A stretch of 64,000 bases of DNA. Origin: Candidatus Doudnabacteria bacterium RIFCSPHIGHO2_01_FULL_46_14 (GTDB taxonomy: Bacteria; Patescibacteriota; Doudnabacteria; UBA920; 2-01-FULL-46-14). The DNA is taken from assembly GCA_001779925.1 (NCBI GenBank), contig MFEK01000007.1, forward strand, positions 4,108 to 68,107, in the 5' to 3' direction. Shown piece after piece: positions 1,641 through 63,199 of this stretch (the first letter of the stretch is position 1; each line of letters opens with the position of its first letter). Both the position numbers and the translations under genes were made by a program. Under the pieces are notes generated by a model. That model was not told where the DNA came from. It was given only the letters and a program-made list of their open reading frames with translations, and did not search any database.

Positions 1641-1712
1641 TCCCTCCCCTTGCCGTGTCCGCCGTAGCTTCAGCGGAGGCTGGGAGGGGGAGGGTTAGGG
1701 AGGGGTGAAAAT
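1641..1712. repeat. GC-rich palindromic hairpin element (family A), intergenic copy
   Basis: tccctcccc...ccgccgtagcttcagcggaggctgggagggggagggttagggaggggtgaaa; the same 3' module recurs at 20290-20325, 50617-50650 and 51784-51815. Confidence 0.8.
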
Positions 1713-1927
1713 TATTCTCCGATTCTTTCCTTAATTCTGCCTAGCCTGGTTGTTATAATCACCGCGGCCAGAGTCACCAAAATCGCATATAGAAAAAGAG
1801 AAAGTACGCCTTTCCCTTTTGGTATAAATTGTTCAATCAATTTTTTTATTGCTTCGTTCCACGCCAGCGCCGCGACCAAGCCAAAAGCCGTGCCAACCAT
1901 CGTCAAACTTTCACTAACAATTTTCAC
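1712..1927 (-). CDS. Small membrane protein (GTG start)
   Basis: 71 aa with two hydrophobic helices, preceded by a conserved TTTTAACGGGGTGA box upstream of the start. Confidence 0.4.
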   Translation of the reverse strand: MKIVSESLTMVGTAFGLVAALAWNEAIKKLIEQFIPKGKGVLSLFLYAILVTLAAVIITTRLGRIKERIGE

Positions 1928-2164
1928 CCCGTTAAAAATTCCTGTTAATTAAAAAGTTAACGTCGAATAACTTATTATTTAGAGTATATAGCCTGTATAT
2001 CGAACAACAAATATTTCTAACGGGGTTCATTTTTACTTTTTTGTTTTGCTCTACCCGGCATCAGCCGTAGCTTTGAACTGCAGGCGAACGCCCTAGTAAC
2101 ACTACAAATAATATTTTTATTTCAACAGCTTGCACTTATCAATATAATTATAGCAAATTTTACC

Positions 2165-4824: not shown

Positions 4825-5097
4825 ATGACCAAGTCAGAGATCCTCTCCGCCCTCGCGGAAGGCACCACCATGAGCAAAAAAGAGATTGGTGAATTCATGG
4901 AAAAGGTAGCAAACCTCGCCTACAAAGAGGTTAAAAACAACGGGGAATTCGTGCTTCCGGGACTCGGCAAGCTCGTCAAGATCAAGCGCGCCGCTCGCAT
5001 GGGCAGGAACCCTGCCACCGGTGAGTCCATCTCAATCCCGGCCAAAACAGTGGTGAAATTCCGCGTGGCCAAAGCAGCGAAAGAAGCAGTTCTGTAA
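4825..5097 (+). CDS. hup: DNA-binding protein HU
   Basis: MTKSEILSALAE...GRNPATGESISIPAKTVVKFRVAKA, the canonical HU/IHF fold signature. Confidence 0.85.
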   Translation: MTKSEILSALAEGTTMSKKEIGEFMEKVANLAYKEVKNNGEFVLPGLGKLVKIKRAARMGRNPATGESISIPAKTVVKFRVAKAAKEAVL

Positions 5098-5115
5098 AAA
5101 AATAGTCAGATTTTA

Positions 5116-5141
5116 AAAACCCGCCTCATCGGCGGGTTTTT
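5116..5141 (+). terminator. Rho-independent terminator of hup
   Basis: aaaaacccgcctcatcggcgggttttt. Confidence 0.7.
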
Positions 5142-5206
5142 GTTTACTCTGTCCTCGCGTCGGGGTTATTTCTTTCACCCTACGGGTGATCTCCCGCAGG
5201 GAGACA

Positions 5207-6221: not shown

Positions 6222-6308
6222 TCCTCCCCTGGATGGGGGAGGAATTGAGGAAGAGGTGTAGGAAACGTCATCACCCCCACCTAACCTCCCCCCTCAAGGG
6301 GGAGGAAT
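6222..6308. repeat. GC-rich palindromic hairpin elements (family A), two hairpins
   Basis: ttcctcccctggatgggggagga ... cacccccacctaacctcccccctcaagggggagga. Confidence 0.8.
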
Positions 6309-9823: not shown

Positions 9824-9929
9824 TTGTTTGTATTTTTTACCCCGTTAGAAATCCACGTTAATAATTGAACTCTTAAAATTATTCTTAAAATAAACTACAT
9901 TCCCGCTCAAGAAAGATCGACATAGATTT

Positions 9930-10208
9930 CTAACTGGGTAAATTCAATTTTATGCCGGGATATTTGGCGAAAACCGGATTCAAAATATTTTTTACGATCG
10001 CGCCGGAGAGCGCGATGTATTCGTCAACGAGTTTCTGAAGAATCGCCTGAGCATTATTTTCATCAATGCTGAGAACCTCTCCCTTGTCGCTGAGCTTCAA
10101 GCCCGCGACGTTTGTTGCTTTGCGAATGGCAATCTCCGGACCGAGAATATCCATTTGTTTGCTGATAATCTCCTCAATGAGTTTTTTGTAATCCTGGTCG
10201 ATAGCCAT
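9930..10208 (-). CDS. Hypothetical protein, likely co-transcribed with the response regulator
   Basis: 92 aa immediately downstream of the 10209..10613 gene. Confidence 0.3.
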   Translation of the reverse strand: MAIDQDYKKLIEEIISKQMDILGPEIAIRKATNVAGLKLSDKGEVLSIDENNAQAILQKLVDEYIALSGAIVKNILNPVFAKYPGIKLNLPS

Positions 10209-15487: not shown

Positions 15488-16398
15488 CAATCCGGGAAGC
15501 CTTCGTTTGGACGGAAAAAAAAATAAATAAGGCAGATTCACCTCAGTTAGATGCTGAGGTTCTTTTGTCACATACCATAAAAAAATCCAAAGAATTCCTT
15601 TTTGCCAATCCGGACTTCAAACTTTCTAGCTTACAGTTTTCCATTTACAGGTCACTAATTCAGAAGCGCGATAGGCACTGGCCGGTCTCTTACCTCATCG
15701 GCCATAAAGAATTCTACGGCTTGGATTTCAAAGTCACACCCCATGTCTTAATTCCAAGACCGGAGACGGAATTGCTGGTAGAACTCGCGATTCAAAAGAT
15801 AAAAAACAAGCGATTAGCGATTAGAAATATCCTCGACATCGGCACTGGAAGTGGCTGCATTATCACAAGCATTGCTGTCATTGCGAGCCAGAGGCGAAGC
15901 AATCTCAAATTCTATGCGACGGATGTTTCAAATTCCGCTTTGAAAATTGCGAAGTCAAACGCACGTCGTCATAGCGTCGCAAAAAAAATAAAATTCCTCC
16001 ACAGCAATTTACTCTCAACCCTACCAGCTACAGCCTACAAGCTACCATCTCTGATTCTCGCCAACCTCCCCTACCTTACCCCTTCGCAATATAATTCGAA
16101 TCTTGATCTAAAACACGAACCACGCGCGGCATTGGTCGCAGGCCCAGATGGACTGAAATATTACCGGAAATTGTTTCGACAAATTCGTAACTCCCCCAAC
16201 CCCTCTTACCCTAAGAGGGGAACTCCTCCCCTTAGCCTAAGGGGAGGTAGGGAGGGGTTATTGACCCTCCTGCTGGAACATGACCCGTCGCAAACCTCCA
16301 AACTAAAGTTTCTCACCAAACAGTATTTTCCCCAGGCCAAACTGAAATTCCACCGCGATTTATCCGGTCTCAATCGAGTTCTAGAAATAAATCTCTAA
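15469..16398 (+). CDS. prmC: Release-factor glutamine methyltransferase PrmC/HemK, carrying an in-frame repeat insertion
   Basis: [13 protein letters not shown] motif, NLPY catalytic motif, LLLEHD tail. The family A palindromic element at 16189-16262 is translated in frame. Confidence 0.8.
16189..16262. repeat. GC-rich palindromic element (family A) inside prmC, in frame
   Basis: aactcccccaacccctcttaccctaagaggggaactcctccccttagcctaaggggaggtagggaggggtt. The first module is near-identical to 30089-30122 in dnaE; both encode [11 protein letters not shown]. Confidence 0.8.
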
Positions 16399-19270: not shown

Positions 19271-20908
19271 ATGATTTACGTTCTTGATTTCGGTTCTCAA
19301 TACTCCCATCTCATTACTCGCCGCATACGCGAGCTCGGCGTACTTGCCGAATTGGTCGCGCCCAATATTTCTCTGGATAAACTGAAATCCGCAGACGGCA
19401 TTATCCTCTCCGGCGGACCGCAAAATCTTTCGGACAGCGACGCGCTCCGCGTGGACAAAAAAATCTTTAACCTAGGCGTTCCTATCCTTGGCATCTGCTA
19501 TGGCATGCAGCTGACGGCTTACGAGCTGGGCGGCCGCGTGAAGGCGGGTAAAAAACGCGAATACGGGCCGACTGACATTAAAATAATAAAACCCGGCAAA
19601 CTGTTTGCTGGACTCAAGCCAAACCAGCGAACCTGGATGTCACACGGAGACCAGGTGGTCAGACTGCCGAAAGGATTCACAAAAATTGCCGGCTCAGTAA
19701 ACTGTCCGATCGCGGCTATGTCCAACCAGGCAAAAAACATCTACTGCCTGCAATTTCATCCTGAGGTCATCCATACCGAGAATGGGAAAAAAATCCTGGA
19801 AAATTTTATAAAAATCACGGGAGCGGCCAGAACCTGGTCAATGAAAGATTTTATTGCTAAAGAAATCGACAAAGTAAAAAAACAAATTGGCAGAGATAAA
19901 GCGATCTGCGCGCTGTCCGGCGGCGTGGATAGCGCAGTGGCTGCAAAAATAGTTTCCAAGGCTATCGGCAAAAATCTCATTTGTATTTACGTGGACACTG
20001 GCCTCATGCGCCTTGGCGAAACCGCGCAGATCAAAAAGTCATTCAAAAACCTCAGAGTCGTTAATGCCGAGAAAGAATTTCTTGCCAAGCTCAAAGGCGT
20101 CACTGACCCAGAAAAAAAGCGTAAAACTATTGGCGAGCTGTTTATTCGGATTTTTGAACGCGAGGCAAGGAAATTGTCACCCCCACCTAGCCTCCCCCCT
20201 CGAGCCTACCCCAAAAGCGAGTACGCTTTCGGGGGACCCCGGCAAGGGGGAGGAAAAAGAAACAAATTCCCCTCCCTTACTGTGCCCGCCGTAGCTTCAC
20301 GCGAAGGCTGGGAGGGGAGGGTGAAATTTCTTGTCCAGGGCACGCTGTATACTGACGCGGTAAGCTCTGGCGTATCAATTGGAAAAACGGCTGCAGTCAT
20401 CAAATCGCATCACAATGTCGGCGGTCTTCCTAAAAAACTGGGGTTCAAACTCATCGAGCCGCTCCGTGATTTGTACAAATACGAGGTCAGAAAACTCGGC
20501 CGCGAGCTCGGCCTTCCCAAATCGATTTATAACCGCCAGCCCTTCCCCGGTCCCGGGCTCGGCGTCCGAGTGATCGGCGAGGTCACAGAAGAAAAACTGG
20601 AACTCCTGAAAAAAGCAGACGCTATTGTCTGCGAGGTAATTGAGAAATCCAAAATCGCCGTTGATCAATATTTTGCCGTACTGCCAGATATTCGGTCAGT
20701 CGGGGTTCAGGGTGATTTTCGCACCTATGGCTGGCCAATCATTATCCGCGCGCTGAATACCGCTGACTACCTCACGGTCCACTGGGCAAAAATTCCCCAT
20801 CCGATTCTGGAAAAAATCTCCACCCGCATCACCAACGAGGTTCGCGGCATAAACCGTGTGGTTTACGATATCACCTCCAAACCCCCTGCCACGGTGGAGT
20901 GGGAATAA
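19271..20908 (+). CDS. guaA: GMP synthase (glutamine-hydrolysing) carrying a ~150-nt in-frame repeat insertion
   Basis: Class I GATase N-terminus (GICYGMQL), PP-loop SGGVDSAV, C-terminal KPPATVEWE. A 48-50 aa insertion lies between REARKLS and KFLVQGTLY relative to canonical GuaA. Confidence 0.9.
   Translation: MIYVLDFGSQYSHLITRRIRELGVLAELVAPNISLDKLKSADGIILSGGPQNLSDSDALRVDKKIFNLGVPILGICYGMQLTAYELGGRVKAGKKREYGPTDIKIIKPGKLFAGLKPNQRTWMSHGDQVVRLPKGFTKIAGSVNCPIAAMSNQAKNIYCLQFHPEVIHTENGKKILENFIKITGAARTWSMKDFIAKEIDKVKKQIGRDKAICALSGGVDSAVAAKIVSKAIGKNLICIYVDTGLMRLGETAQIKKSFKNLRVVNAEKEFLAKLKGVTDPEKKRKTIGELFIRIFEREARKLSPPPSLPPRAYPKSEYAFGGPRQGGGKRNKFPSLTVPAVASREGWEGRVKFLVQGTLYTDAVSSGVSIGKTAAVIKSHHNVGGLPKKLGFKLIEPLRDLYKYEVRKLGRELGLPKSIYNRQPFPGPGLGVRVIGEVTEEKLELLKKADAIVCEVIEKSKIAVDQYFAVLPDIRSVGVQGDFRTYGWPIIIRALNTADYLTVHWAKIPHPILEKISTRITNEVRGINRVVYDITSKPPATVEWE
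20176..20325. repeat. GC-rich composite palindromic element (family A) inserted in frame in guaA
   Basis: cacccccacctagcctcccccctcgagcctaccccaaaagcgagtacgctttcgggggaccccggcaagggggaggaa...ccgccgtagcttcacgcgaaggctgggaggggagggtgaaa; near-identical to the intergenic copy at 50675-50755. Confidence 0.85.
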
Positions 20909-23293: not shown

Positions 23294-23440
23294 TTTACGA
23301 ATTACTAATGAGTACGAATATACGAATTCGTACATTCGTAATTGATTCGTTATTCGTAAAACAAATAATAGCAAATAAAAAACCCGCAGTCAAGGGGCGG
23401 ATTTGTAAATTCGTATTGATTAGTAATTCGCAGGGATCAG
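23294..23440. repeat. TACGAAT-heptamer palindromic element (family B), empty copy plus partial extra arm
   Basis: ttacgaattactaatgagtacgaatatacgaattcgtacattcgtaattgattcgttattcgtaaa; arms are reverse complements of each other. Confidence 0.8.
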
Positions 23441-24484: not shown

Positions 24485-24718
24485 GTCGATATTCGTAAAC
24501 TATCCGGTTTACATCTTCCTCGCTTTTAATCCCCATTTTCCGCCCGATTTTTTGGCCATAGGCGAACAGGTCTGCCCATTTTTCTTTCTGAGCCAAATAA
24601 ACCCGGACTGCTTCACGAATAAATTCACTGCGATTTTGATACTCGCGCTTAGCTGTTTGATCTATTTTCCTCACCAGCTGATCTGGCAAAGCAATATTGA
24701 AAGTTTTAGTCTTCACCC
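24453..24718 (-). CDS. vapB: Ribbon-helix-helix (CopG/RHH) antitoxin, overlapping vapC start
   Basis: FNIALPDQLVRKIDQTAKREYQNRSEFIREAVRVYL, an RHH beta-strand/helix pattern; GTG start; 32-nt overlap with the toxin gene. Confidence 0.6.
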
Positions 24719-24832
24719 CGTTTTAGAAATAAATAATTAATCGCTCAACCCCACTGAAACACCATGCGTTTCTAACGGGATTCATATACATATATTGTAT
24801 ATGATACATACATAATTGTCAAGCCCACTCAC

Positions 24833-26799: not shown

Positions 26800-26886
26800 A
26801 GCTACGAACTACGAATTTTTTACGAAAATACGAAAAAGAACTGATTTGTTCGTAATTTCGTAGCCTTATTTCGTAATTTCGTAGCC
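26800..26886. repeat. TACGAAT-heptamer palindromic element (family B), empty copy directly upstream of dnaE
   Basis: gctacgaactacgaattttttacgaaaatacgaaaaa...gttcgtaatttcgtagcc (right arm duplicated). Confidence 0.8.
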
Positions 26887-29800: not shown

Positions 29801-30508
29801 GCGGACGAAAACCAGTATTTCACTATCGGCGGCATCATCACCCGCATCCAAAACATTCTCACCAAAAAAGGCGATCAGATGTGTTTTGCGGATATTGAGG
29901 ACGAAAGCGGCAAGCTGGAGCTGGTTGTGTTTCCGAATGTTTATAGTGAATCCAAATCCTTGCTCGCGGTAGACCAAATCCTTCTCACGAGAGGCAAGAT
30001 TTCCGATAAAGATGGGGAAATAAAACTGCTGGTGGATTCTATGAAATTGATTGGAGACGCGGATTTGGAAAAATGGGTTAACACTCGTAACTCCCCTAAC
30101 CCCTCTTACCCTAAGAGGGGTATTGCCCCCCACCTAACCTCCCCCACTGCCTACTCCGCCGAAGTGGCTACGGAGGCCGGACAGGGGGGAGGAAAAAATG
30201 CAGGGGATTTCCCTCCCCAGAACAGGACTTACTCTTCTATCTTCCCTCCCCCCGGTGAGGAGGGACTGAGGGAGGGGGGGCGCGTTCTCAAAATCAAAAT
30301 CCCCAAAACCGCAGACCCGCAGGTGTTTAACAAATTAAAAATCGTGTTCAACAAATTCCCAGGCGAGGTGGCCGTGTCCCTCGTCATCCCCGACCGCGAA
30401 GGAACGGAACGGGAAGTGAAAACTGACTTTAAAGTAGACAGCACCGACCTGTTCAAAACCGAGTTGCGGGAACTCTTACGCCAGAGCATCCAGCACGTCA
30501 AGTCTTGA
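26888..30508 (+). CDS. dnaE: DNA polymerase III alpha subunit with a ~190-nt in-frame repeat insertion near the C-terminus
   Basis: PHP domain (HLHVHSHYSLLDG), polymerase core, OB-fold region. The C-terminal region contains translated family A palindromic elements at 30089-30281. Confidence 0.9.
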   Translation: MQFTHLHVHSHYSLLDGLSKIPDLISAVQKKGMEAVALTDHGALYGALEFYKAARRSGVKPIIGLEAYVAPGSMLEKKTPADADYFHMILLARNNEGYQNLLKLVTASHLEGYYYKPRIDKKLLSQYSSGLIGLSGCLRGEIARAVAAGNFDSAKRIALEYQNIFEPDGFYLELQRNLEEPQQQTVNDGLIKISRETSIPIVATNDAHYLNPEDNAAQDILVCIGTGTTVEQTDRLDMRKMKLHLASPEEMAELFSDIPEAIANTQKIADMVDLTLSLEKRHFPSFPVPEGQNAEDYLEKLSLRGLKEKKPDRELPAEILTRLNYELDVIKKKGYAGYFLVVADFVNWSRARGIISTTRGSAAGSLVAYALGITTLNPIEYKLPFERFLNPYRPTPPDIDMDFADNRRDEVLNYVSDKYGRDRVAQIVTFGTMMARAAVRDVGRALGVAYSKCDRIAKMIPLGKQGFHMTIEKALTLAPELKEAFDRDQETRNLIELARKVEGCARHASVHAAGVVIAPTSLSSYTPLQLDTDNKNIITQYDMHSVEEAGLVKMDFLGIRNLSILGNAVEVVRTSRGIDIDLGKIPLDDPKTYKLLSLGRTMGVFQLGGSGMTKYLVDLKPTNIFDIMAMISLYRPGPMESIPEFIQRKHNAALITYIDPRLKEILDMSYGVITYQEDVLLTAITVAGYTWEEADKLRKAMGKKIPKEMMAQKEKFIQGAITGGLSSEKAVKLWALIEPFAAYGFGKAHAASYAMVAYQTAYMKANFPVEFMAAVMTAEAGDNEKVAQAVNECASLEIEVLPPDVNESLANFTAINDRQIRFGLNAIKNLGSDVIETIIAERAKGGEFASLGDFVRRMKTRNFNKKSWEALAKSGSLDRYGERNQLLLNTEIILEYAKAEQKQLASGQSMLLGGATAAAQELLLRNAPQASDQEKLSWEKELLGLYVSSHPLRSHRALLEKYCKPINVLSIADENQYFTIGGIITRIQNILTKKGDQMCFADIEDESGKLELVVFPNVYSESKSLLAVDQILLTRGKISDKDGEIKLLVDSMKLIGDADLEKWVNTRNSPNPSYPKRGIAPHLTSPTAYSAEVATEAGQGGGKNAGDFPPQNRTYSSIFPPPGEEGLREGGRVLKIKIPKTADPQVFNKLKIVFNKFPGEVAVSLVIPDREGTEREVKTDFKVDSTDLFKTELRELLRQSIQHVKS
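30089..30281. repeat. GC-rich composite palindromic elements (family A) inside dnaE, in frame
   Basis: aactcccctaacccctcttaccctaagagggg...ccccccacctaacctccccc...ggacaggggggaggaaaaa...cttccctccccccggtgaggagggactgagggaggggggg. Confidence 0.85.
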
Positions 30509-33911: not shown

Positions 33912-34862
33912 ATGAAGTTGCCAAAGCTCATCATCATAACCGGACCCACCGCCTCCGGAAAGACTGCCTTGTCTTTAAAATTGGCCAAAAAAATTCACGG
34001 CGAAATAATCTCAGCTGACAGCCGGCAAATCTATCGCGGCATGGACATCGGGACGGCAAAACCGTCCCGAGATCAAAGATCAAAAATCAAAGATCAAAAT
34101 TTTTATTCCAAAGGGATTCGCCACCACCTCATTGATATTCGTAATCCTGATCAGCCCTATACTCTGGCTGAGTTCAAACGCGATGCCATAAAAGCGATAA
34201 ATACCATTGCGAAACGCGGCCGCGTCCCCTTTCTGGTCGGCGGCACAGCTCTCTACATCTGGGCTATTCTGGAAAATCCGGAAATACCCGAGGTTAAACC
34301 GAATAGCAAATTTAGAAATCTGCTTGAACGACAGTTACAGCGACACGGCGTTCAATACCTCTACAAAAAACTAATTCTAAAAGACCCCGAAGCCGCCTGC
34401 ATCATTGATCCAAAAAATCCCCGCAGAATCATCCGCGCTCTGGAAATAATGCACGCTACAGGCAAACCGTTTTCGGATTCTCGAAAAAAAGGAGCATCGC
34501 TCTTTGATTGCATGGTTTTGGGAATGAAACTGCCGCCCGCAAAATTGAAAAAAATAATCAAGCTTCGCGCAGCCCAGCAGTTACGCTCCAATCTCATTTC
34601 CGAAGTCCGAAGATTAACTAAAAAATATGGCATACAAAGGCAAGCCTTTGATGCTATAGGCTACCGCGAAATAATTTCTCATTTGAATGGGCAAATTTCC
34701 AAAGCCGAAGCTCTAAAACAAATCCAAAACAACACCTGGCATTTTGCTGGCCGCCAGATGACCTGGTTTAAAAAACTACCGATTGAGTGGATCAAAAATT
34801 ACAAGCAGGCTGAAACGAAAATCAAAACGCATTTATTCCTCCCCCTTGAAGGGGGAGGTTAG
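33912..34862 (+). CDS. miaA: tRNA dimethylallyltransferase
   Basis: P-loop GPTASGKT, DSRQIYRGMDIGTAKP. The last 9 codons and stop lie in a palindromic element. Confidence 0.85.
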   Translation: MKLPKLIIITGPTASGKTALSLKLAKKIHGEIISADSRQIYRGMDIGTAKPSRDQRSKIKDQNFYSKGIRHHLIDIRNPDQPYTLAEFKRDAIKAINTIAKRGRVPFLVGGTALYIWAILENPEIPEVKPNSKFRNLLERQLQRHGVQYLYKKLILKDPEAACIIDPKNPRRIIRALEIMHATGKPFSDSRKKGASLFDCMVLGMKLPPAKLKKIIKLRAAQQLRSNLISEVRRLTKKYGIQRQAFDAIGYREIISHLNGQISKAEALKQIQNNTWHFAGRQMTWFKKLPIEWIKNYKQAETKIKTHLFLPLEGGG

Positions 34863-34924
34863 GTGGGGATGGAGAATTTAAGTACTTCACCCCTCCCTTA
34901 ATCCCTCCCCCTCAAGGGGAGGGA
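34837..34924. repeat. GC-rich palindromic hairpin elements (family A), three hairpins overlapping the miaA 3' end
   Basis: ttcctcccccttgaagggggagg...cacccctcccttaatccctccccctcaaggggaggg. Confidence 0.8.
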
Positions 34925-34932
34925 AAATTTCT

Positions 34933-41230: not shown

Positions 41231-43705
41231 ATGACCGATTTCATAAACGAAAAATTTTCCTCTCGGGCCAAAAATGCCCTAAAGACTGCACAAAAAATCT
41301 CTGAAGAGCTCGGCTATACCTATATCGGCTCTGAGCATTTACTATTTGGAATAGTGGTAGAGTTCAGCTCGTTTGCCTCTGAGGTAATTCTCAAAAATAA
41401 GATCAATGAAGAATTGCTACGCATGGAGCTCATCCGGCGCAGAAAACAACCTCTTTTTCCGGAAGCAAAGATTACTCCCGACGTCAAAGCATGCTTGGAA
41501 AGAGCGGCTATTATTGCAGCAAAATATCAATACCAGTTTATAGGCACCGAACATTTTCTTTATGGAATAGTAGACAGTGAAGATAATGAAGCAAGGAGGA
41601 TCCTCACTGCTCTTGGCATCGAGCCGCGGGAGATTAAAAAAAACTTGCTTTCCATTTTTGAAAATGTCTCCAAATTTCCAGATCCGGTGATGCGTGAAAC
41701 CCCCAGGATCCCGGATGAGCCAAATATGGCAGGTGGCGCTCTCAGCTATTTCACGACCGACCTTACCGCTAGGGCCAATGCTGGACACATTGATCCGCTC
41801 ATCGGCCGAAAAGATGAAGTCGAAAGACTCGTTAGCATTCTCGGACGGCGCCACAAAAACAATCCTGTCCTCATTGGCGAGCCAGGCGTTGGCAAGACTG
41901 CGATTGTTGAAGGGCTGGCCCTGGCAATCAAACAGCGAAAGGTTGCCCGGAATCTTCTTGGCAAACGAATCTTGTCTCTTGATCTGGCACTGATGGTCGC
42001 AGGATCAATGTTCCGCGGCGAATTTGAAAATCGCCTCAAGCAGGTACTGGAAGAAATAAAAGAATCAACTGATGTAATCTTGTTTATTGACGAATTGCAC
42101 ACCCTTGTAGGCGCAGGAGCCGCGACAGGCAGTCTTGATGCTGCCAATATTCTTAAACCTGCCCTGGCACGCGGAGAAATACGCGCGATCGGGGCCACGA
42201 CTCTGTCGGAATATAAAAAACATATCGAGACTGACCCTGCTCTGGAGCGCCGGTTCCAGCCGATCGTTGTTCGAGAACCAACTCCTGCTGAAGCACTCGA
42301 GATTCTCAAGGGTCTGCGGCCTCATTACGAAAACCACCATGGGGTAAAAATCACGGAAGATGCCCTGGAAGAAGCCATAAAACTCTCCGTGCGCTATATT
42401 GGCGAGCGTTTTTTGCCTGACAAAGCTTTGGACCTGATTGACGAAACTGCGGCTTTCCATAAGATGCACCATGATCAAAAAAATCTTGATCCCGGATCTG
42501 AAAATCCCCAGGAGAATCTTGAATATCTGGTAGCGCAGAAGCGGCTGGCAGTGCTGAACCGAAATTTTGAAAAAGCGACTGTTCTCCGCGGCCAGGAAAA
42601 CGTACTTCTCAAAAACCTCGACAGCGCGAAAAAAAACGAAACTGATAAACCTCCTATTTTAGAAATATCCAAATCGCATATTGCCGGATCGGTAGCCCGG
42701 ATAACAGGCATTCCTATTGAAGCACTACGGGCCGCCGACCGTTCGCATTTAAAAAACCTGGAAAAAAGGTTGAAAACCAAGATTCTGGGCCAGGATAACG
42801 CTATCAAGGAAATTTCCTCGGCGATCCGCCGCTCACGAGCCGGAATCTCTTCGGCCACGCGACCTTTGGGCTCTTTTATGTTTCTCGGGCCTTCCGGAGT
42901 TGGTAAAACCCTCCTTGCAAAAATACTGGCGCGCGAACTGTTTGGAGACGAAAAGGCCTTGGTGCGGATCGATATGTCAGAATTAATGGAGCGTCACAAT
43001 GTCGCGCGCCTTATCGGCGCTCCGGCAGGGTACGTGGGATTTGAGGAAGGCGGCCGGCTCACGGAAACAATCAGAAGAAAGCCCTACTCCATAGTGCTGT
43101 TTGACGAAATGGAAAAAGCTCACGCAGACGTGTTTAATCTGTTGCTGCAAATTCTCGAAGAAGGAGAACTCACCGATGCTGCCGGAAAAGTTGTGAATTT
43201 CCGCAATACCTTGATTATCATGACCTCGAATATTGGCCTCAGTACGTTTAACAAAGCCGCGCGCGGCTTTGGCTTTGACAGAGACAGGAAATCGAAAGTA
43301 AATTTTGAACAGACTGCAGAAGCGGTACTCGATGAAGTCAAAACGAATCTGCGTACGGAATTTATAAACCGGATAGATAAAATAATCGTGTTCGAACCGA
43401 TCAAAGCTGAGGAACTTGAAAAAATTGCGGTCTTGGAAATGGAAAAATTGAAAAAACAGCTCTCAGAACTCGGCATTCACCTAACTGCATCACAAAAAAC
43501 CTATGAGTATCTGGCGAAAATAAGTTTTGACCCGGAGCAGGGGGCGCGAAAAATCCGTAAAAACATACAGGAACAGGTGGAAGATTTGATAGCAAAAAAA
43601 ATTATCGCAGGCAGCATCAAACCCGGTCAAAATATCGAACTCACTCTCAAAGGCAATAAAACAAAAGCTTTGCATGTTCAAATCGTGGACCGGATCACTG
43701 CTTGA
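41231..43705 (+). CDS. clpC: Clp/Hsp100 ATPase (ClpC/ClpB family) with tandem Clp_N repeats and two AAA+ modules
   Basis: Two Walker A sites (GEPGVGKT, GPSGVGKT), Walker B (DELH), sensor and arginine-finger regions. Confidence 0.85.
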   Translation: MTDFINEKFSSRAKNALKTAQKISEELGYTYIGSEHLLFGIVVEFSSFASEVILKNKINEELLRMELIRRRKQPLFPEAKITPDVKACLERAAIIAAKYQYQFIGTEHFLYGIVDSEDNEARRILTALGIEPREIKKNLLSIFENVSKFPDPVMRETPRIPDEPNMAGGALSYFTTDLTARANAGHIDPLIGRKDEVERLVSILGRRHKNNPVLIGEPGVGKTAIVEGLALAIKQRKVARNLLGKRILSLDLALMVAGSMFRGEFENRLKQVLEEIKESTDVILFIDELHTLVGAGAATGSLDAANILKPALARGEIRAIGATTLSEYKKHIETDPALERRFQPIVVREPTPAEALEILKGLRPHYENHHGVKITEDALEEAIKLSVRYIGERFLPDKALDLIDETAAFHKMHHDQKNLDPGSENPQENLEYLVAQKRLAVLNRNFEKATVLRGQENVLLKNLDSAKKNETDKPPILEISKSHIAGSVARITGIPIEALRAADRSHLKNLEKRLKTKILGQDNAIKEISSAIRRSRAGISSATRPLGSFMFLGPSGVGKTLLAKILARELFGDEKALVRIDMSELMERHNVARLIGAPAGYVGFEEGGRLTETIRRKPYSIVLFDEMEKAHADVFNLLLQILEEGELTDAAGKVVNFRNTLIIMTSNIGLSTFNKAARGFGFDRDRKSKVNFEQTAEAVLDEVKTNLRTEFINRIDKIIVFEPIKAEELEKIAVLEMEKLKKQLSELGIHLTASQKTYEYLAKISFDPEQGARKIRKNIQEQVEDLIAKKIIAGSIKPGQNIELTLKGNKTKALHVQIVDRITA

Positions 43706-44702: not shown

Positions 44703-45560
44703 TTACTGCACTGCTTCGGGCTCGTTGTTTTCGTCAATGGTGACTACATCGCCGAGCTGAGTATCGGTTTCGACCGGCGTATCTTTTACGACCGGACTCT
44801 TTATTATTTTCTTACTCTTTGCAGGAAAACTGGGAACACTTGAGGTGGTTTTTGGCGTTGTCGTAGCCTCAGTCACATTTTCTTCTCCAGCGCTCACTGT
44901 TGTGCCCTTGACCTCTTCACTGGTCAATTTCGTTATAGATTCTTTGGTGCTAATGATGGCATGCTCTACTGCCTCTTTGACCTCGCTCGTCGCGCCAGAA
45001 CCCACGCTGGTCAAAACTTTTTCCTGTTCAACCGCCACCTCAGTAGCCTCATTTGTCAGCTCTGGTCTGACCTCAAAAACAGCCACCACCTCTACCATTT
45101 CTTCGGTTGAAGTCTTTAAAGCCGCCAAAGTATCCTCGACAATCTTTGTGTCTTTCTTGGCTTCCACGAGAGTTTTTACTTCCGCAAGTCTGCGCTTGGC
45201 ATGTCTGATGCTAACCTTGACCTTGGCTTCATCAGTGACGGCAGCAACCTTTTCCACCTGTTCAGCTACGATCTTGACCGGATACAGGGTTTCACCAGGC
45301 TGGGCATTGGCGACCGACCCTACCATAGTCAAAGCCAAAATCACCACCATGACAGTAGCCCCGATTCTGGCAAGAGTCCGCGGCAAAAATAGGTATTTCC
45401 ATACCGGCAGGCTGATTTCGGCTTTGTCCTGCAGTCTCGCGGCTATTATATAATTATGGACGCGCTGCCAAACCTTTTCTTTATCAGAAAAAGGCAAAAG
45501 CTTCCGCGGCAAACCCGCGGACATTTGGCTTATTAATTTTTCGAACTCATTATCATTCAC
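44703..45560 (-). CDS. Putative anti-sigma factor (cytoplasmic N-domain, one TM helix, extracytoplasmic helical domain)
   Basis: Downstream of the ECF sigma gene; TM at ~60-85; conserved 5'-UTR box upstream. Confidence 0.45.
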   Translation of the reverse strand: MNDNEFEKLISQMSAGLPRKLLPFSDKEKVWQRVHNYIIAARLQDKAEISLPVWKYLFLPRTLARIGATVMVVILALTMVGSVANAQPGETLYPVKIVAEQVEKVAAVTDEAKVKVSIRHAKRRLAEVKTLVEAKKDTKIVEDTLAALKTSTEEMVEVVAVFEVRPELTNEATEVAVEQEKVLTSVGSGATSEVKEAVEHAIISTKESITKLTSEEVKGTTVSAGEENVTEATTTPKTTSSVPSFPAKSKKIIKSPVVKDTPVETDTQLGDVVTIDENNEPEAVQ

Positions 45561-45633
45561 CCCGTTAGAAATCCTATGTTAATTATTTTACTTTAAGTCT
45601 CGATTTTTCCTACCACTCCCGTTAGCGAGATTT

Positions 45634-46203
45634 CTAACGGGGTTCATATTTTAAAATCTTTTTTAGTTCACTAATGGCTCGATGCTGGATAACGCGGATC
45701 GCGCCTTCTGATTTGCCAAGTATCTTGGCGATATCAGGATTGTCGAGCTCCTCGAGAAATTTGAGCTTGATGACGATTTGTTGTTCTTCGGTTAGCTGGC
45801 CGAGATTTTCCAAAAAGGCTTTTTGCTGAAAAGACAGATTCGTCCGGTCAATCATATTGTCTTCGTACTGCAGGACATTCTCCAAAAGACTGATGTCCAC
45901 GTTCTCTTTGCGGGAACGGTAATAATCGATCACCAGGTTTCTGGCGATCTGGTAAATCCAGCCGTTGAAGGCTTGGGCTTCCTGGATTTTATCCAGCTTG
46001 TCCCAGACTTTGATAAACACCTCTGAAACCAGGTCTTCGGCTGCTTCCTTGTGATTGACCCGGAAATAGATAAATCTATAAACCTTTTGAAAGTACAGAT
46101 CGTAAATCTGGCCAAAAGCTATCTCATCGCCATTTTTGGCTCTAAGGACGAGCGCTTCTAGGTTTTGAGAATTGCTGTTTTGGTCCACAAATTGCTGGAT
46201 CAA
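45634..46203 (-). CDS. ECF-type RNA polymerase sigma factor
   Basis: Sigma-70 region 2 (FIYFRVNHKEAAEDLVSEVFIKVW) and region 4 HTH (ELDNPDIAKILGKSEGAIRVIQHRAISELK). Confidence 0.8.
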   Translation of the reverse strand: MIQQFVDQNSNSQNLEALVLRAKNGDEIAFGQIYDLYFQKVYRFIYFRVNHKEAAEDLVSEVFIKVWDKLDKIQEAQAFNGWIYQIARNLVIDYYRSRKENVDISLLENVLQYEDNMIDRTNLSFQQKAFLENLGQLTEEQQIVIKLKFLEELDNPDIAKILGKSEGAIRVIQHRAISELKKILKYEPR

Positions 46204-47942: not shown

Positions 47943-47985
47943 AACCTTATTTTATCATATAATTAATAGTGCTACGAGGTGGGGT

Positions 47986-48023
47986 CGCATAGCGGTTTAG
48001 TGCACCAGTCTTGTCAGCCCAAG
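47986..48023 (+). pseudogene. Duplicated 5' half of tRNA-Ser(UGA): acceptor, D-arm and anticodon stem up to CUUG
   Basis: GGTGGGGTCGCATAGCGGTTTAGTGCACCAGTCTTG versus the intact gene at 48302 (GGTGGGGTCGCATAGTGGTCGAGTGCACCAGTCTTG): 32/36 identical. Confidence 0.6.
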
Positions 48024-48028
48024 GCTGA

Positions 48029-48316
48029 TCCGCCCCGGGCGGAAAAACCAAAAACTATACGCATTATGTTTACATACTAAAAAGTGAAAAAACGGGAAAA
48101 CTCTACAAAGGCAGCACGGATGATTTGAGGAAAAGAATACTTAACCACAATGCTCGCAAAGTAAATTCCACAAAAGGCGGGACACCATGGAAATTGATAT
48201 ACTATGAAGCATTTATCTCAAAAATGGACGCAAGGAGAGAGGAGCTATTTTTAAAAAGCGGAAAGGGTCGCGAGAGAATTAAGTGGCTATTTAATCAAAA
48301 TGGTGGGGTCGCATAG
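48029..48316 (+). pseudogene. GIY-YIG endonuclease-domain ORF with no in-frame ATG/GTG/TTG before the GIY motif (possibly degenerate)
   Basis: Frame reads ...HYVYILKSEKTGKLYKGSTDDLRKRILNHNARK...GTPWKLIYYEAFISKMDARREELFLKSGKGRERIKW. The GIY...YKG, R, E, N core is intact. An in-frame TGA lies at 48026; the first candidate start (TTG 48125) is after the GIY motif; the stop lies inside the downstream tRNA. Confidence 0.55.
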
Positions 48317-48391
48317 TGGTCGAGTGCACCAGTCTTGAAAACTGGAACGGGTGAAAGCCCGTCGAGGGTTCGAATCCCTCCCCCACCGCCA
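48302..48391 (+). tRNA. tRNA-Ser (anticodon UGA), class II
   Basis: GGTGGGGTCGCATAGTGGTCGAGTGCACCAGTCTTGAAAACTGG...ACGGGTGAAAGCCCGTC...GGTTCGAATCCCTCCCCCACCGCCA. Confidence 0.85.
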
Positions 48392-48480: not shown

Positions 48481-50612
48481 CATTTTACATTATCATGTTA
48501 TCAATAAATGATTCTGTCTCCAAACTCCACCTTGTTAAACCTGAGCACCTTGAGGCCTTATCCAAGCTTGGCATTAAAACCGTAAAAGATTTACTGTATC
48601 ATTTTCCCCGGGACTGGCAGGATCTTTCGGAAATTAAAAAGATTTCCGAGATACGGCCAGGGGAAAAGATCAGCATCAAGGCTCGAGTTAAACATCTGAG
48701 CATTCCTGGCTTTCCTTTTCGCAGGGTCAAGATCACGGAAGCCCTGCTCGAGGATGAAACCGGAAATGTGGTCGCGATCTGGTTTAACCAGCCGTACATA
48801 AAAAATTCGCTTCGCTTGGGAAATGAATATTATTTCAGCGGCAAGGGTCAGATTTACGCCACAAAAAAACAGCAAACCCTCCAGCTGACGCATCCCACAT
48901 TTGAGATGGTACGCGAGGAAACAATTCATGTTGCCGGTCTTATCCCTGATTACCCGCTCACAGAAGGTATAACCCAAAAACAAGTCCGCTATTGGCTTAA
49001 ACAAGCTCTGGAATCTTTGCCGCAGCTCATAGAGATCCTGCCGGAAAAGTTGAAGAAAAAAATGAAGCTTATCGGGCACACGGAGGCAATAAAAAATCTA
49101 CATTTCCCTGATGATGCAGCCCATCTCAAAAAAGCAAAAAACCGCCTAGCTTTTGAGGAGTTATTTCTGTTTCAGCTGGCTTTCCAAAGCTATAAAAAAA
49201 CGTTAAAGTGCCTGCCGGCACCGGCAATCCAATTCGACAAAAATCTGGTAAGCCAATTCGTCGAGAAACTTTCGTTTCAGCTCACTGCCTCCCAGCGCCT
49301 CTCTGCCTGGGAAATCCTCAGCGACATGGCAAAGCCCCACCCTATGAACCGGCTCCTGGAAGGAGAGGTCGGCTCCGGGAAAACCGTAGTCGCCGGACTG
49401 GCTATGCTGGAAACGGCTACGGCCGGCTATCAATCGATATTGCTGGCACCGACGGAGATTTTGGCCTGGCAGCATTACCAAACCCTGGAAAAGCTTTTTG
49501 CGCATACTGGCATTAAGATTGCTTTGCAAACACGAAGTCATAAAATTGGGGAGATTAGGGAAATAAGGGAAGGCACGATCAAAATAATTGCAGGAACTCA
49601 TGCCCTTCTCCAAGAGCGGATCAGTTTCCATAAAATCGGTCTTTTAGTAATCGATGAACAGCACCGGTTTGGCATCAAACAGCGGCAAGCATTGCTTCGC
49701 GGACAAGCCGAGTTAGTTCCTCACCTATTAAGTATGACTGCGACCCCGATCCCGCGCACGCTCGCTCTGGCATTTTACGGAGACCTGGATATATCAAAGC
49801 TGAAGGAACTGCCCTCGGGAAGAAAAAAAGTCATCACGAAATTGGCATCGCCTGAGAATCGCGTGCTCGCCTACGAAGTTGTCAGAAAGGAATTGCAAAG
49901 AGGCCGACAGGCTTATGTGATCGTGCCGCTTGTCGGAGAAACAAGCGATTTATCACCCCTCCCTAACCCTCCTCCTCAAGGGGAGGGAAATACAAATGAA
50001 ACAAAATCAGTAATTACAGAGGTCGAAAAATTAAAAAAAATTTTCCCAGAATTCCAGATCGGCCTTCTTCATGGCAAAATGCCCGGCGAGGAAAAGAAAA
50101 AAATCATGCAAGTATTTTCCGCCAAAGGCGGATCCGCAACCGGCGGAAAAGCTCATAAAATAGACATTCTCGTTTCCACGACCGTGGTCGAGGTCGGCGT
50201 AGATGTTCCAAACGCCACGATTATGATCATCGAGAACGCAGAACGGTTCGGCTTGTCGCAGCTGCACCAACTACGCGGTCGGGTTGGAAGATCACACCTG
50301 CAGTCTTTGTGCGTGCTGTTCGCCGGCCTCTATTCCGAAACGACACGGCAGCGCCTGGAAGCAGTCGTGAATAGCAATGACGGATTTGAGCTTGCGGAAA
50401 TTGATTTGAAGATGCGCGGCGCCGGCGAAATACTCGGCACCAAGCAGTCCGGTTTTATTCCCTTCAAAATCGCCTCGCTCAGCGACGAAAAAACAATCGA
50501 ATCAGCAAAAAAAGAAGCCCTGGCTCTTTTGGAGCAGGACCCTGAACTTGAGAATTATCCAATGCTGATGAAAAAGGTTGCGGAGATTTCAAAAGAAGCC
50601 CATCTGGAATGA
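48456..50612 (+). CDS. recG: ATP-dependent DNA helicase RecG with small in-frame repeat insertion
   Basis: Wedge/OB N-domain, helicase motifs GSGKT, DEQHRFG, TATPIPR, QLRGRVGR. A 13-aa insertion SPLPNPPPQGEGN is encoded by the palindromic element at 49954-49988. Confidence 0.9.
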   Translation: MSFRFLHFAFYIIMLSINDSVSKLHLVKPEHLEALSKLGIKTVKDLLYHFPRDWQDLSEIKKISEIRPGEKISIKARVKHLSIPGFPFRRVKITEALLEDETGNVVAIWFNQPYIKNSLRLGNEYYFSGKGQIYATKKQQTLQLTHPTFEMVREETIHVAGLIPDYPLTEGITQKQVRYWLKQALESLPQLIEILPEKLKKKMKLIGHTEAIKNLHFPDDAAHLKKAKNRLAFEELFLFQLAFQSYKKTLKCLPAPAIQFDKNLVSQFVEKLSFQLTASQRLSAWEILSDMAKPHPMNRLLEGEVGSGKTVVAGLAMLETATAGYQSILLAPTEILAWQHYQTLEKLFAHTGIKIALQTRSHKIGEIREIREGTIKIIAGTHALLQERISFHKIGLLVIDEQHRFGIKQRQALLRGQAELVPHLLSMTATPIPRTLALAFYGDLDISKLKELPSGRKKVITKLASPENRVLAYEVVRKELQRGRQAYVIVPLVGETSDLSPLPNPPPQGEGNTNETKSVITEVEKLKKIFPEFQIGLLHGKMPGEEKKKIMQVFSAKGGSATGGKAHKIDILVSTTVVEVGVDVPNATIMIIENAERFGLSQLHQLRGRVGRSHLQSLCVLFAGLYSETTRQRLEAVVNSNDGFELAEIDLKMRGAGEILGTKQSGFIPFKIASLSDEKTIESAKKEALALLEQDPELENYPMLMKKVAEISKEAHLE
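49954..49988. repeat. GC-rich palindromic hairpin (family A) inside recG, in frame
   Basis: cacccctccctaaccctcctcctcaaggggaggg. Confidence 0.8.
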
Positions 50613-50616
50613 GTCT

Positions 50617-50765
50617 TTTCCCCTCCCTTGATGGGAGGGGTAAGGGAAGGGTGAAATTTAATTATGCCACCCCCCACCTATAACCTCCCCCATCGAGCCT
50701 ACCCCAAAACCGAGTACGCTTTTCGGAGACCCCGGCAAGGGGGAGGAACTAAATTCAGGGGGATA
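50617..50765. repeat. GC-rich composite palindromic element cluster (family A), intergenic
   Basis: cccctcccttgatgggaggggtaagggaagggtgaaa...caccccccacctataacctcccccatcgagcctaccccaaaaccgagtacgcttttcggagaccccggcaagggggaggaa; 80-nt core about 90% identical to the guaA insertion. Confidence 0.85.
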
Positions 50766-51766: not shown

Positions 51767-51783
51767 GTACATCTCCTGTCTTT

Positions 51784-51866
51784 TCCCCTCCCTTGATGGG
51801 AGGGGTTGGGGGAGGGTGATAAATTAGACAGTTCACCCCACCTTACCTCCCCCCTCAAAGAGGGAA
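51784..51866. repeat. GC-rich palindromic element cluster (family A), intergenic
   Basis: cccctcccttgatgggaggggttgggggagggtgataaa...caccccaccttacctcccccctcaaagaggg. Confidence 0.8.
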
Positions 51867-53409: not shown

Positions 53410-54333
53410 ATGAACAACATTAAGCCCAAGACACTAATAGACTTCTTAGCCAACTTCAAAGATGAGACTACCTGCCAGAGATACTTTGAGGAGGTTCGCT
53501 TCCGAAACGGCCAGTATTGCGCCCATTGTGGCCATACCACTATCTACCGCTTCAAGGACGGCAAACGCTTTCGCTGTGCCGATTGCCGCAGGGATTTCAC
53601 TATCAAAACCAATACAATCTTTGGTGAAAGCAAAATTCCCCTGCAAAAATGGTTTATAGCCATTTATCTGCTCTCTACATCTAAAAAGGGCATTTCCTCG
53701 GTTCAGCTTGCTAAACAAGTTGGCACTACCCAAAAAACGGCCTGGTTCATGGATCACCGCATAAGGGAGGCCATGAAACAAAACAAAGGCCAGCTATTCG
53801 GGACTGTGGAAGTGGACGAAACCTATATCGGCGGTAAAGAGAAAAATAAGCACTTCAATAAAAGAGCTAAAGGCACGCAAGGCCGAAGCACAGAAACTAA
53901 AACGCCAGTCATGGGTTTAATTCAGCGCGGCGGCAAAGTCAAAGCGTCTGTGTTGGAAAATGTCAGCATGAAAGTTATTGAGCAGAACATCGTTGACCAT
54001 GTAAAGCCAGGCTCAAAAATTTACACTGACGATTTCCTATCATACTCACGAATTAAAAAGCTCTACCCGCACGAAGCCGTAAAGCACGGCAAAGGTGAGT
54101 ATGTCCGGGCAGGCGGTATTCACTCAAACAGCGTGGAAAGTTTCTGGGCGATTTTCAAAAGGGGTTATCATGGCACATACCATAAAATGAGCCGGAAGCA
54201 CTTACAGAGATATGTTGATGAGTTCGTATTTCGCTTCAACGCAAAGGCAGTAGATTTTGGCGAAACCTTTAGCGATATGGTTATGAAAGTATCGGCCAGC
54301 GAAACATTGCGCTACAAGGCTCTAGTAAAGTAA
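53410..54333 (+). mobile_element. IS1595-family transposase gene (N-terminal zinc-ribbon plus DDE domain)
   Basis: FKDETTCQRYFEEVRFRNGQYCAHCGHTTIYRF...RFRCADCRRDFTIKTNTIFGESKIPLQKWFIAIYLLSTSKKGISSVQLAKQVGTTQKTAWFMDHRIREAM, the hallmark IS1595/ISXO2 N-terminus. Terminal inverted repeats not resolved. Confidence 0.8.
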
Positions 54334-54676
54334 AATCTATGTATGAGCAGAAAATCAAAAATTCACGAGCCAATCCCTGTTAGTTTTGACAAAATCCTAA
54401 CTGGTATTGCGGATGAGAAAAAACCTCGTAAGCATAAGGAGCGAAAGCGCAAAGTGCGAGGGTATAAGAAAAAAGCATGAGAAATTGGATTAAAGAAACC
54501 TGGTTCAAAATTATAATCGCCACTTTTCTATTAGTCGTGTGCTATTTTCTTATCTACATTACTTTCAAAGGATTTCCTGTTTGCAATACTGATCCAAAAA
54601 CATCTCTAATTTTAAGACACGGTTGCAAAACTTTTTAAAAGTTTAGGGTAGCTTTGTATATAATTCCCACAATATT

Positions 54677-58759: not shown

Positions 58760-58762
58760 GGT

Positions 58763-58828
58763 TTTACGAATTACGAATATTTACGAATGTACGAATTCGT
58801 AAATTCGTACGATTCGTTATTCGTAAAG
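58763..58828. repeat. TACGAAT-heptamer palindromic element (family B), empty copy between virB4 and the upstream gene
   Basis: ttacgaattacgaatatttacgaatgtacgaattcgtaaattcgtacgattcgttattcgtaaa, a perfect central palindrome gtacgaattcgtac. Confidence 0.8.
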
Positions 58829-58830
58829 CT

Positions 58831-59508: not shown

Positions 59509-59511
59509 AAT

Positions 59512-59617
59512 GGCTACGAACTACGAAATGAATACGAAAATACGAAACGAATCTTGAAAATATTGTATATAAATAAATGGATTAGCGTCATTTTTTCGTA
59601 TTTTCGTAAGGATTCGT
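59512..59617. repeat. TACGAAT-heptamer palindromic element (family B), empty copy with 45-nt AT-rich spacer
   Basis: ggctacgaactacgaaatgaatacgaaaatacgaaacgaa...tttcgtattttcgtaaggattcgtagttcgtagc. Confidence 0.8.
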
Positions 59618-60043: not shown

Positions 60044-60044
60044 A

Positions 60045-60524: not shown

Positions 60525-60601
60525 TTTATTATAGCATAAATTGAAAAAATAACAAAAAACCTCCTTTTCGTATTTTCGTAAGTATTCGTAGTTCGTAGCC
60601 T

Positions 60602-61390: not shown

Positions 61391-61394
61391 CTAG

Positions 61395-61858: not shown

Positions 61859-61864
61859 TTACAA

Positions 61865-63196: not shown

Positions 63197-63199
63197 ACT

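Follow-up and report, generated by a model that had tools for sequence, protein, structure and literature searches.

A small inverted-repeat element, very probably a MITE, at gene starts in a Candidatus Doudnabacteria genome

The window analyzed here, a 64,000-nucleotide stretch (64 kb) of contig MFEK01000007.1 from Candidatus Doudnabacteria bacterium RIFCSPHIGHO2_01_FULL_46_14, carries four minus-strand copies of a paired sequence, CCCCGTTAGAAAT … ATTTCTAACGGGG, each located directly 5' of a gene. The four genes are unrelated to each other; they encode a DUF5654 protein, a 98-aa membrane protein without a Pfam match, an RHH_1 (ribbon-helix-helix, RHH) antitoxin followed by a PIN_3 toxin, and a DUF5667 anti-sigma-like protein. 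The initial annotation of this DNA had described inverted-repeat pairs upstream of four minus-strand genes for two small membrane proteins, an RHH antitoxin and a putative anti-sigma factor, and all four pairs are present with the gene types it gave. Its paired intervals exist as pairs, but two of them, 1911-1935 and 9913-9930, are shifted by up to ~16 nt, and the measured gap between the halves is 37-73 nt instead of the 70-100 nt proposed. On the minus strand the copies share one layout, consisting of 4 nt, CCCCGTTAGAAAT, 37-73 nt of AT-rich and non-conserved sequence, ATTTCTAACGGGG, and 4 nt. Exact matches to TTTYTAACGGGGT occur five times in the 64 kb, all within these four pairs and far above the chance expectation for a 13-mer. 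The features are located as follows.

1927..2025, minus strand: copy 1, 99 bp; proximal arm 1927-1939 (ATTTTTAACGGGG), distal arm 2013-2025 (CCCCGTTAGAAAT)
1923..1926 (right) and 2026-2029 (left), minus strand: target-site duplication of copy 1, TGAA; A2030 before the left copy gives an original ATGAA
1927 plus the TG of the duplication, minus strand: GTG start of the DUF5654 gene (1712-1927), at copy 1
9840..9938, minus strand: copy 2, 99 bp, degenerate; distal arm 9926-9938 (CCCAGTTAGAAAT), proximal arm 9840-9852 (ATTTCTAACGGGG)
24716..24780, minus strand: copy 3, 65 bp; distal arm 24768-24780 (TCCCGTTAGAAAC), proximal arm 24716-24730 (ATTTCTAAAACGGGG)
24712-24715 and 24781-24784, minus strand: target-site duplication of copy 3, TGAA
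24716-24714, minus strand: GTG start of the RHH antitoxin gene, at copy 3
45560..45642, minus strand: copy 4, 83 bp; perfect arms 45630-45642 and 45560-45572
45556-45559 and 45643-45646, minus strand: target-site duplication of copy 4, TGAA
45560-45558, minus strand: GTG start of the anti-sigma-like gene, at copy 4

The other arms show small departures from the perfect arms of copy 4. Copy 1 has a single C>T change, which falls at a G.U position in the sense-RNA stem, and the distal arm of copy 2 has one base change. The arms of copy 3 have a first-base change, a 2-nt insertion in the proximal arm and a mismatch at position 13. Downstream of copy 2, the gene begins with an ATG at 9823, 16 nt past the element. 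Upstream, open reading frame (ORF) 9930-10208 terminates at the TAG of the distal arm, as does the sigma factor gene at copy 4.

In copies 1, 3 and 4 a TGAA direct repeat stands on both sides of the element, and an A precedes the upstream TGAA. When the element and one TGAA are removed in silico, the three genes regain ATG starts: ATGAAAATT (MKI...), ATGAAGACT (MKT...) and ATGAATGAT (MND...). The rebuilt empty site of copy 1, AAAAATGAAAATTGTT, reads ATG AAA ATT, the MKI... of the DUF5654 protein, and that of copy 3, TATATGAAGACTAAA, opens the RHH antitoxin with MKTKTF.... At copy 4 the rebuilt site, AAATATGAATGATAATGAG, places the sigma factor end TAT GAA TGA over the anti-sigma-like start ATG AAT GAT in an 8-nt overlap. 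In the present sequence, the downstream ORF of each of these copies starts with a GTG composed of the last G of the element and the TG of the duplicated TGAA. The GGGGTGA that had been taken for a Shine-Dalgarno (SD)-like region is made of the element's last G's and the duplicated TGAA, a piece of the old start codon; its GGGG touches the GTG start with zero spacing. SD sequences are mostly missing upstream of the 43 long genes of the window, where the DNA is AT-rich. With so few SDs in the genome, there is no conventional ribosome-binding site (RBS) to sequester, and it is the GTG itself that sits in the stem. A promoter-like TTGACA-17-TACAAT lies at 24822-24794, 9 nt before the retained ATG (24785-24783) of copy 3.

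The GTG-started N-termini are genuine, as judged from Pfam alignments that begin at residue 2 (DUF5654 protein) and residue 7 (RHH protein), and from an N-terminus, MK/RIVSESL, common to 12/12 DUF5654 homologues. The public annotation of the DUF5654 gene (1712-1927, minus strand; P0123) uses an internal Met start and yields 62 aa, whereas the homologues and the Pfam profile back 71 aa. At copy 4, the ORF of the extracytoplasmic function (ECF) sigma factor now stops at the TAG of the distal arm (45636-45634), the final Pro-Arg and stop being encoded by the arm (45634-45642, minus strand). The protein, which ended ...KYE before the insertion, now ends ...KYE-PR.

Comparison with orthologous loci of other genomes, which are labeled here by L-numbers (L001, L132 etc.), revealed both empty and filled sites; two further assemblies are identical to the window. 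In L132, whose sigma factor is 75% identical, the sigma/anti-sigma junction reads CC ATGAATGA ACAGGAGTTAGAAAAGTTAATA and carries no element. This junction (ATGAATGA ACAGGAG) has the same form as the rebuilt window site, T ATGAATGA TAATGAG. ATGA overlaps are found at the junction in L131 (sigma 79% identical) and L002 (64%). Upstream of the DUF5654 gene, L134 and L133 (81-82% identical) have a direct ATG and no element. Empty orthologous sites are therefore seen for two of the window copies, and conservation of the element upstream of orthologous genes was not found, since it is missing at the sigma/anti-sigma and DUF5654 sites in relatives that are 75-82% identical. A site of the opposite kind was found in L001, which shares the gene order tRNA-Ser–sigma–anti-sigma–comF–clpB with the window. 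There, a 67-bp copy lies at the clpB stop, CTGC TTGA[CCCCG...CGGGG]TTGA TCTGG, flanked by duplicated TTGA, and the window holds the corresponding target unoccupied:

43702..43705, plus strand: unoccupied target TTGA at the clpB stop; the window reads CTGCTTGATTTTG and L002 reads TTTCTTGACCTG, the site being filled in L001

The sigma/anti-sigma junction holds a copy in L001 and L004 as well. The L001 junction copy is 5 nt upstream of the window's position, and so it represents an independent insertion. Among 119 other sigma homologues, the element-encoded Pro-Arg end is found only in L001 and L004.

We conclude that the four pairs are very probably the terminal inverted repeats of a small non-autonomous hairpin element of 65-99 bp, resembling a miniature inverted-repeat transposable element (MITE). 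The element is short and non-coding, has terminal inverted repeats, is flanked by a duplication of fixed length, and is dispersed with empty and filled sites. The pairs are best explained as a new family member of this known kind of element and not as conserved 5'-UTR regulators. The element would insert at a short target, R|T(A/G/C)AA, and duplicate 4 bp, which suggests a mobilizing enzyme making 4-bp staggered cuts. When the target is the TG of a start codon, the old ATG would be kept upstream while G plus TG creates a GTG downstream, so that the gene keeps a start. Insertion into start codons explains the apparent RBS in the motif, the position in front of four unrelated genes and the mirror copy upstream. 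The initial annotation had offered, as its alternative, a repeat family with a preferred insertion site, and that suggestion is borne out by the 4-bp duplication, the empty and filled orthologous sites and a target, R|T(A/G/C)AA, that ATGAA fits.

In the mRNA the arms are predicted to pair (~-27 to -33 kcal/mol), forming a stem whose base holds the GTG. Predicted folding energies are -27.2 kcal/mol for copy 1 (z = -3.2), -33.5 kcal/mol for copy 2 (z = -4.9) and -27.2 kcal/mol for copy 4 (z = -3.6); for copy 3 the best fold, -18.7 kcal/mol (z = -1.4), is a local hairpin and not the long-range stem. The RBS-sequestering stem proposed earlier holds as a stable predicted stem in copies 1, 2 and 4, but not in copy 3, and what it encloses is a start codon instead of an RBS. 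Such stems, with the start codon at their base, could belong to a dedicated cis-regulatory leader RNA that masks the RBS or start of small genes forming a regulon, until a signal such as temperature, a ligand or a protein opens it. The like orientation of 4/4 window copies relative to the downstream gene, the covariation of arm positions 12-13 and the fact that three lineages carry the element at their sigma/anti-sigma junction are in its favor. However, there is no conserved interior or loop able to sense, the downstream genes are unrelated, and across phyla the neighbors are housekeeping genes of no particular kind, whichever side and direction is considered. Close relatives carry the same genes without the element, the 4-bp target duplications indicate arrival by insertion, and the genome offers no SD to sequester. 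Rfam returned only tRNAs for the whole window at the gathering score and, for two loci at E<=1, only chance miRNA/sRNA matches far under threshold. Covariation between the arms, which had been put forward as a check, is seen at positions 12-13 but is equally expected of two transposon ends. The leader-RNA explanation is improbable for these copies and largely refuted as the function of the family; the shared control element envisaged at first is likewise not supported, as only the 13-nt arms are conserved, the same arms lie beside unrelated housekeeping genes and Rfam has no matching family.

In every window copy a frame from upstream covers the distal arm. A short ORF, MNPVRN..., begins at the old ATG of copies 1, 3 and 4 and stops 4, 6 and 27 nt before the GTG. 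Ribosomes on the retained upstream frame would open the stem and might thereby allow initiation or re-initiation at the GTG. A related explanation is attenuation or coupling by a leader peptide (upstream ORF), in which the conserved ATGAACCCCGTTAGAAAT encodes MNPVRN and its translation controls the downstream gene. ATG AAC/AAT CCC GTT AGA AAT is indeed present in copies 1, 3 and 4, and in copies 1 and 3 this frame ends 4-6 nt short of the GTG, at the proximal arm's TAA. Its ATG, though, is the old start codon left upstream by the duplication, and the peptide is not conserved past six residues. Its length and stop vary widely, from 61 nt before the GTG up to in-frame read-through, and such an ORF is missing from copy 2 and from most of the family, making control by a leader peptide very unlikely. 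Within the insertion model, the hairpin is probably a by-product, and the insertions would be tolerated rather than regulatory. As the stem forms in any transcript crossing the element, a side effect on translation is plausible.

The family beyond the window was surveyed by an exact-pattern scan, CCCGTTAGAA N50-80 TTYTAACGGGG, of one genome per species, which matched at least 120 stretches; all family counts below (134, 141, 154 and 161 elements) are among the matches listed from that scan. By record title, the carriers belong to at least 12 phyla. The near-invariant ends span subsurface and sediment bacteria, from many Patescibacteria lineages to Planctomycetota, Thermodesulfobacteriota / "Deltaproteobacteria", Nitrospirota, Nitrospinota and Omnitrophota, with further carriers in KSB1, Cloacimonadota, Ratteibacteria, Clostridia, Gammaproteobacteria and Bdellovibrionales. 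Nearly all are metagenome-assembled genomes (MAGs) from groundwater, sediment and other anoxic settings. Identical 4-nt flanks were found for 89/154 elements, compared to 4/154 in a control with flanks offset by 4 nt, and no other duplication length fits these 154. Element length ranges from 26 to 260 bp with a mode of 70-110 bp (161 elements). All-against-all clustering of the 920 ORFs of the loci shows diverse housekeeping genes as neighbors and no recurrent partner.

The family ends, CCCCGTTAGAA(A/G)N, form a 13-bp terminal inverted repeat. The arms are exactly 13 nt long; complementarity drops sharply at position 14, with ~60% of cells unpaired from there onward. It should be mentioned that positions 1-11 are fixed by the search pattern and only positions 12-13 were free to vary. 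Position 12 is A or G and position 13 any base, and the two arms agree in 126/141 and 116/141 elements, respectively; two-sided changes number 36 and 49, and no more than 10-15 cells are unpaired. The arm sequence GTTAGAA / TTCTAAC resembles the GTTRRRY / RYYYAAC core of integron attC sites, and small genes together with a toxin-antitoxin pair do lie downstream, as they might if attC sites separated gene cassettes. The core-like motifs come in inverted order, however, GTTAG preceding CTAAC whichever strand is read. Distances of 8-20 kb separate the copies, which lie among housekeeping genes and tRNAs instead of in an array, no integrase is found nearby, and a 4-bp target duplication is not an attC feature; the probability of attC sites is negligible.

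Interiors are mostly unique, the exceptions being lineage-restricted subfamilies. The biggest of these, 94 bp with two GC hairpins and a conserved interior, occupies differing sites in 8 deltaproteobacterial MAGs and is a textbook case of an active MITE. Plasmids gave no BLAST match to this 94-bp subfamily. Since only 1 of 2.9 million viral contigs has the pattern, the element is not carried by phages. When metagenomes were scanned with the Doudnabacteria-type subterminal motif, 3 matches were obtained, all of them small elements. No description of the element turned up in text searches of the literature that covered its arm sequences and MITEs from these phyla.

Several unusual forms were seen among the compared loci. 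Minimal forms of 26-40 bp consist of the two arms alone, still flanked by the 4-bp repeat, and nested copies also occur, one inner element having the variant arms CCCCATTACAAAT / ATTTGTAACGGGG. In L008 (MAG DX4.bin27) the element lies inside inverted repeats of ~330 bp (2046-2369 and 4832-5155) enclosing a 2.7-kb segment that codes for a 686-aa secreted protein, and the larger repeat is also present in L006, L018 and L031.

L041 2990-3014: minimal or nested copy
L027 6015-6042: minimal or nested copy
L032 1262-1291: minimal or nested copy
L086 2081-2178: minimal or nested copy
L124 907-997: minimal or nested copy

The target consensus R|T(A/G/C)AA comes from oriented sites, with a purine at -1 in 83/91 and, within the duplication, T at position 1 in 82/91 and A at positions 3 and 4 in 78/91 and 80/91. 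ATGAA and GTGAA fit this target, as do many stop-codon contexts (G|TAAA, TTGA). Thirteen elements lie exactly on A|TGNN and precede an ORF of at least 60 codons that starts with GTG, 3/13 being read through in frame. Candidate start-codon overlap was found for 21/134 elements against 2.4% of random TNNA sites, and stop-codon overlap for 15/134 against 3.5%. We attribute the association with gene starts to target preference together with the survival of harmless insertions. The 4-bp duplication preserves both stop and start at gene overlaps, which explains such junctions as tolerated sites in a compact genome.

Elements within coding sequence were also observed. In L127 (also L128 and L129; ~1870-1975) murC is interrupted after codon 6, and an ATG internal to the element gives it a new in-frame N-terminus, MKENTKEISNGV-KIHFIGIGG. 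In L039 (5239-5333), L073 and L115 (1562-1641), in-frame reading through the element extends the N-terminus by MNPVRN...SNGV-.

In the GC-hairpin subfamilies the duplication is TTTA, TTCA or TTGA on the strand with ...ATGCCCCGC or ...GCCCCRGC after the left arm (19/19), and this constant orientation implies polar insertion. The AT-rich Doudnabacteria type shows a polarity of 3 vs 1, with L127 opposite. The loci of the GC-hairpin subfamilies are these.

L016, L025, L039, L050, L082, L088, L109, L114, L116, L122: GC-hairpin subfamily
L020, L037, L103: GC-hairpin subfamily, further set
L017, L053: GC-hairpin subfamily, further set
L106, L107: GC-hairpin subfamily, further set

A fixed polarity in several subfamilies and an asymmetric target would also suit a palindrome of the repetitive extragenic palindrome (REP) or REP doublet (REPIN) kind, maintained by the host and moved by a single-copy HUH enzyme (Y1, of the type of REP-associated tyrosine transposases, RAYT) that works on hairpins of single-stranded DNA. 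Folding of the whole element into one hairpin is possible, the minimal 26-40 bp versions are two arms only, arms but not interiors are conserved, no transposase adjoins the copies, and one related contig has a weak Y1_Tnp gene. Yet HUH elements make no target duplication, whereas here the 4-nt flanks change together copy by copy, even with a constant interior (TTTA/TTTA vs TTCA/TTCA). The correlation of the flank with arm positions 12-13 that a guide model predicts was not seen. A single arm is not palindromic and has no GTAG-type 5' tetranucleotide, and REP sequences are lineage-specific instead of cross-phylum. We hold a REP-like system to be highly improbable.

Several observations weigh against the insertion of a MITE-like element. 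First, neither the window nor ~0.9 Mb of the compared loci yielded an autonomous partner that carries a transposase between these ends; MAGs often lack assembled insertion sequence (IS) copies. Copy 2 has flanks TTTA (9939-9942) and TAAA (9836-9839) without a direct repeat, and a perfect duplication is missing in 65/154 elements. The window copies are alike only in the arms and ~12 nt beside the proximal arm; they are therefore old, or derive from different source elements. The start-codon excess over permissive sites is only about two-fold and noisy, as naive ORF calls put 33/80 sites "inside" ORFs, and we give this comparison no weight. The asymmetric target and the single polarity of the GC-hairpin subfamilies (19/19) are atypical for symmetric DDE transposition. 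Finally, the 11-nt arm core is the same across many phyla, which is unusual for IS ends and could mean selection on the arms themselves, although this invariance is partly due to the exact-match search, as variants such as CCCCATTACAAAT exist.

Candidate parents were also considered. Arm pairs 260-6000 bp apart with matching flanks proved to be only coincidental TTTA pairs of separate small elements, and solo arms among the loci merely have degenerate partners. The 2.7-kb segment between inverted copies in L008 was rejected as a parent, encoding a secreted protein and no transposase. An IS1595-family transposase is present in the window (53410-54333, plus strand; Zn_ribbon_IS1595 and DDE_Tnp_IS1595, E = 6e-46), and it was rejected as a partner on account of ends and flanks unrelated to the CCCCGTTAGAA arms. 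A tblastn search with an ISEcp1 (IS1380-family) transposase sequence as query gave one spurious match, in a P-type ATPase gene.

That the element belongs to an undescribed cross-phylum family of hairpin MITEs, with near-invariant 13-bp ends and a fixed polarity of insertion into the asymmetric R|TVAA, is a tentative and rather doubtful proposal. If true, such a family would point to an unrecognized shared transposase or a host-retained REP-like system. By landing on starts and on stop/start overlaps it would repeatedly shape gene starts in streamlined genomes, regenerating GTG starts, adding Pro-Arg tails or new N-termini and setting a translation-opened hairpin between coupled genes. The same ends in at least a dozen phyla, mostly of uncultivated anaerobes, together with the asymmetric target and fixed polarity, may be a lead to an uncharacterized transposition system.

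For the genes themselves, the insertion swaps ATG for GTG starts and so affects gene annotation, as with the 62 vs 71 residues of the DUF5654 protein. A MITE that targets ATGAA can leave a signature worth knowing in genome scans. Element-encoded residues are added to proteins, as in the sigma Pro-Arg tail, and elsewhere N-termini are replaced or extended (murC, ligA-like and others). The 14-bp stem placed in the former 8-nt sigma/anti-sigma overlap is a natural experiment on how much separation a coupled gene pair tolerates.

Other repeats and mobile features were noted in the window. A second repeat family consists of G/C-rich palindromes, TCACCCC...CCCTCCCCCTCAAGGGGGAGGG, just past gene ends (families D1, D4, D6, D8, D15 and D16), which may be terminators or another small mobile element. 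A third is rich in TACGAA/TTCGTA, and several of its copies flank small PDDEXK_3 and bAvd/23S-rRNA-IVP-like genes at 59-64 kb. From ~54600 to 64000, and on beyond the window in L126, conjugation/type IV secretion-like genes (TrbL_3, a CagE_TrbE_VirB / P-loop_TraG ATPase, TraC-like) lie beside the IS1595-family transposase, which suggests an integrated conjugative element in a Candidate Phyla Radiation (CPR) genome. A 36-nt segment at 47978-48013 (D11) is 92% identical to the 5' half of tRNA-Ser(tga) (48302-48391), 290 nt upstream, and may be a remnant of integration at the tRNA.

1640-1710: second repeat family
6271-6308: second repeat family
16185-16231: second repeat family
20177-20322: second repeat family
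30085-30192: second repeat family
34831-34926: second repeat family
49953-49990: second repeat family
50613-50748: second repeat family
51778-51859: second repeat family
23294-23434: third repeat family
26801-26835: third repeat family
58763-58809: third repeat family
59513-59627: third repeat family
60046-60080: third repeat family
60485-60599: third repeat family
61397-61443: third repeat family

We have compared the element to known systems. REPINs mobilized by RAYTs are similar in having two conserved inverted short sequences around a variable spacer of ~40-80 nt, an intergenic hairpin and no adjacent transposase. They differ from this element in making no target duplication, in that each REP is a small palindrome with a 5' tetranucleotide, and in being species-specific; no RAYT gene was seen next to the copies. 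Members of the IS1380 family have ends in CC and make a duplication of 4-5 bp (ISfinder family table), and piggyBac ends, CCCTAGAAAG, lie beside a 4-bp TTAA duplication. Both resemble TNNA|CCCCGTTAGAAAT, a tentative lead. The piggyBac target is palindromic (TTAA), whereas that of this element is asymmetric, and no IS1380-like transposase was found in the DNA of the compared loci.

In the long-range pairing of phage MS2 and in some ribosomal-protein operons, a downstream start lies in a stem whose other strand is under an upstream frame, as here. A start-masking stem under an upstream translated frame should be unmasked by upstream translation. In contrast to MS2-type coupling, the present arrangement appears to be an accidental product of insertion that is not conserved at the same genes in relatives.

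The closest parallels are the Correia/NEMIS elements of Neisseria and other bacterial MITEs (RUP, ERIC-like), which are likewise short (~100 bp), non-coding and multi-copy, with terminal inverted repeats that fold their transcripts into a long hairpin. They too lie near or between genes and are co-transcribed, carry a target duplication and are polymorphic for presence/absence among related genomes. Correia elements are known to be processed by RNase III and to have promoter activity. They duplicate TA, have 26-bp repeats and a conserved interior with an integration host factor (IHF) site, and are confined to one genus, whereas the element described here makes a 4-bp duplication (mostly TNNA, rarely containing TA), has 13-bp repeats and mostly unrelated interiors, and occurs in at least 12 phyla.

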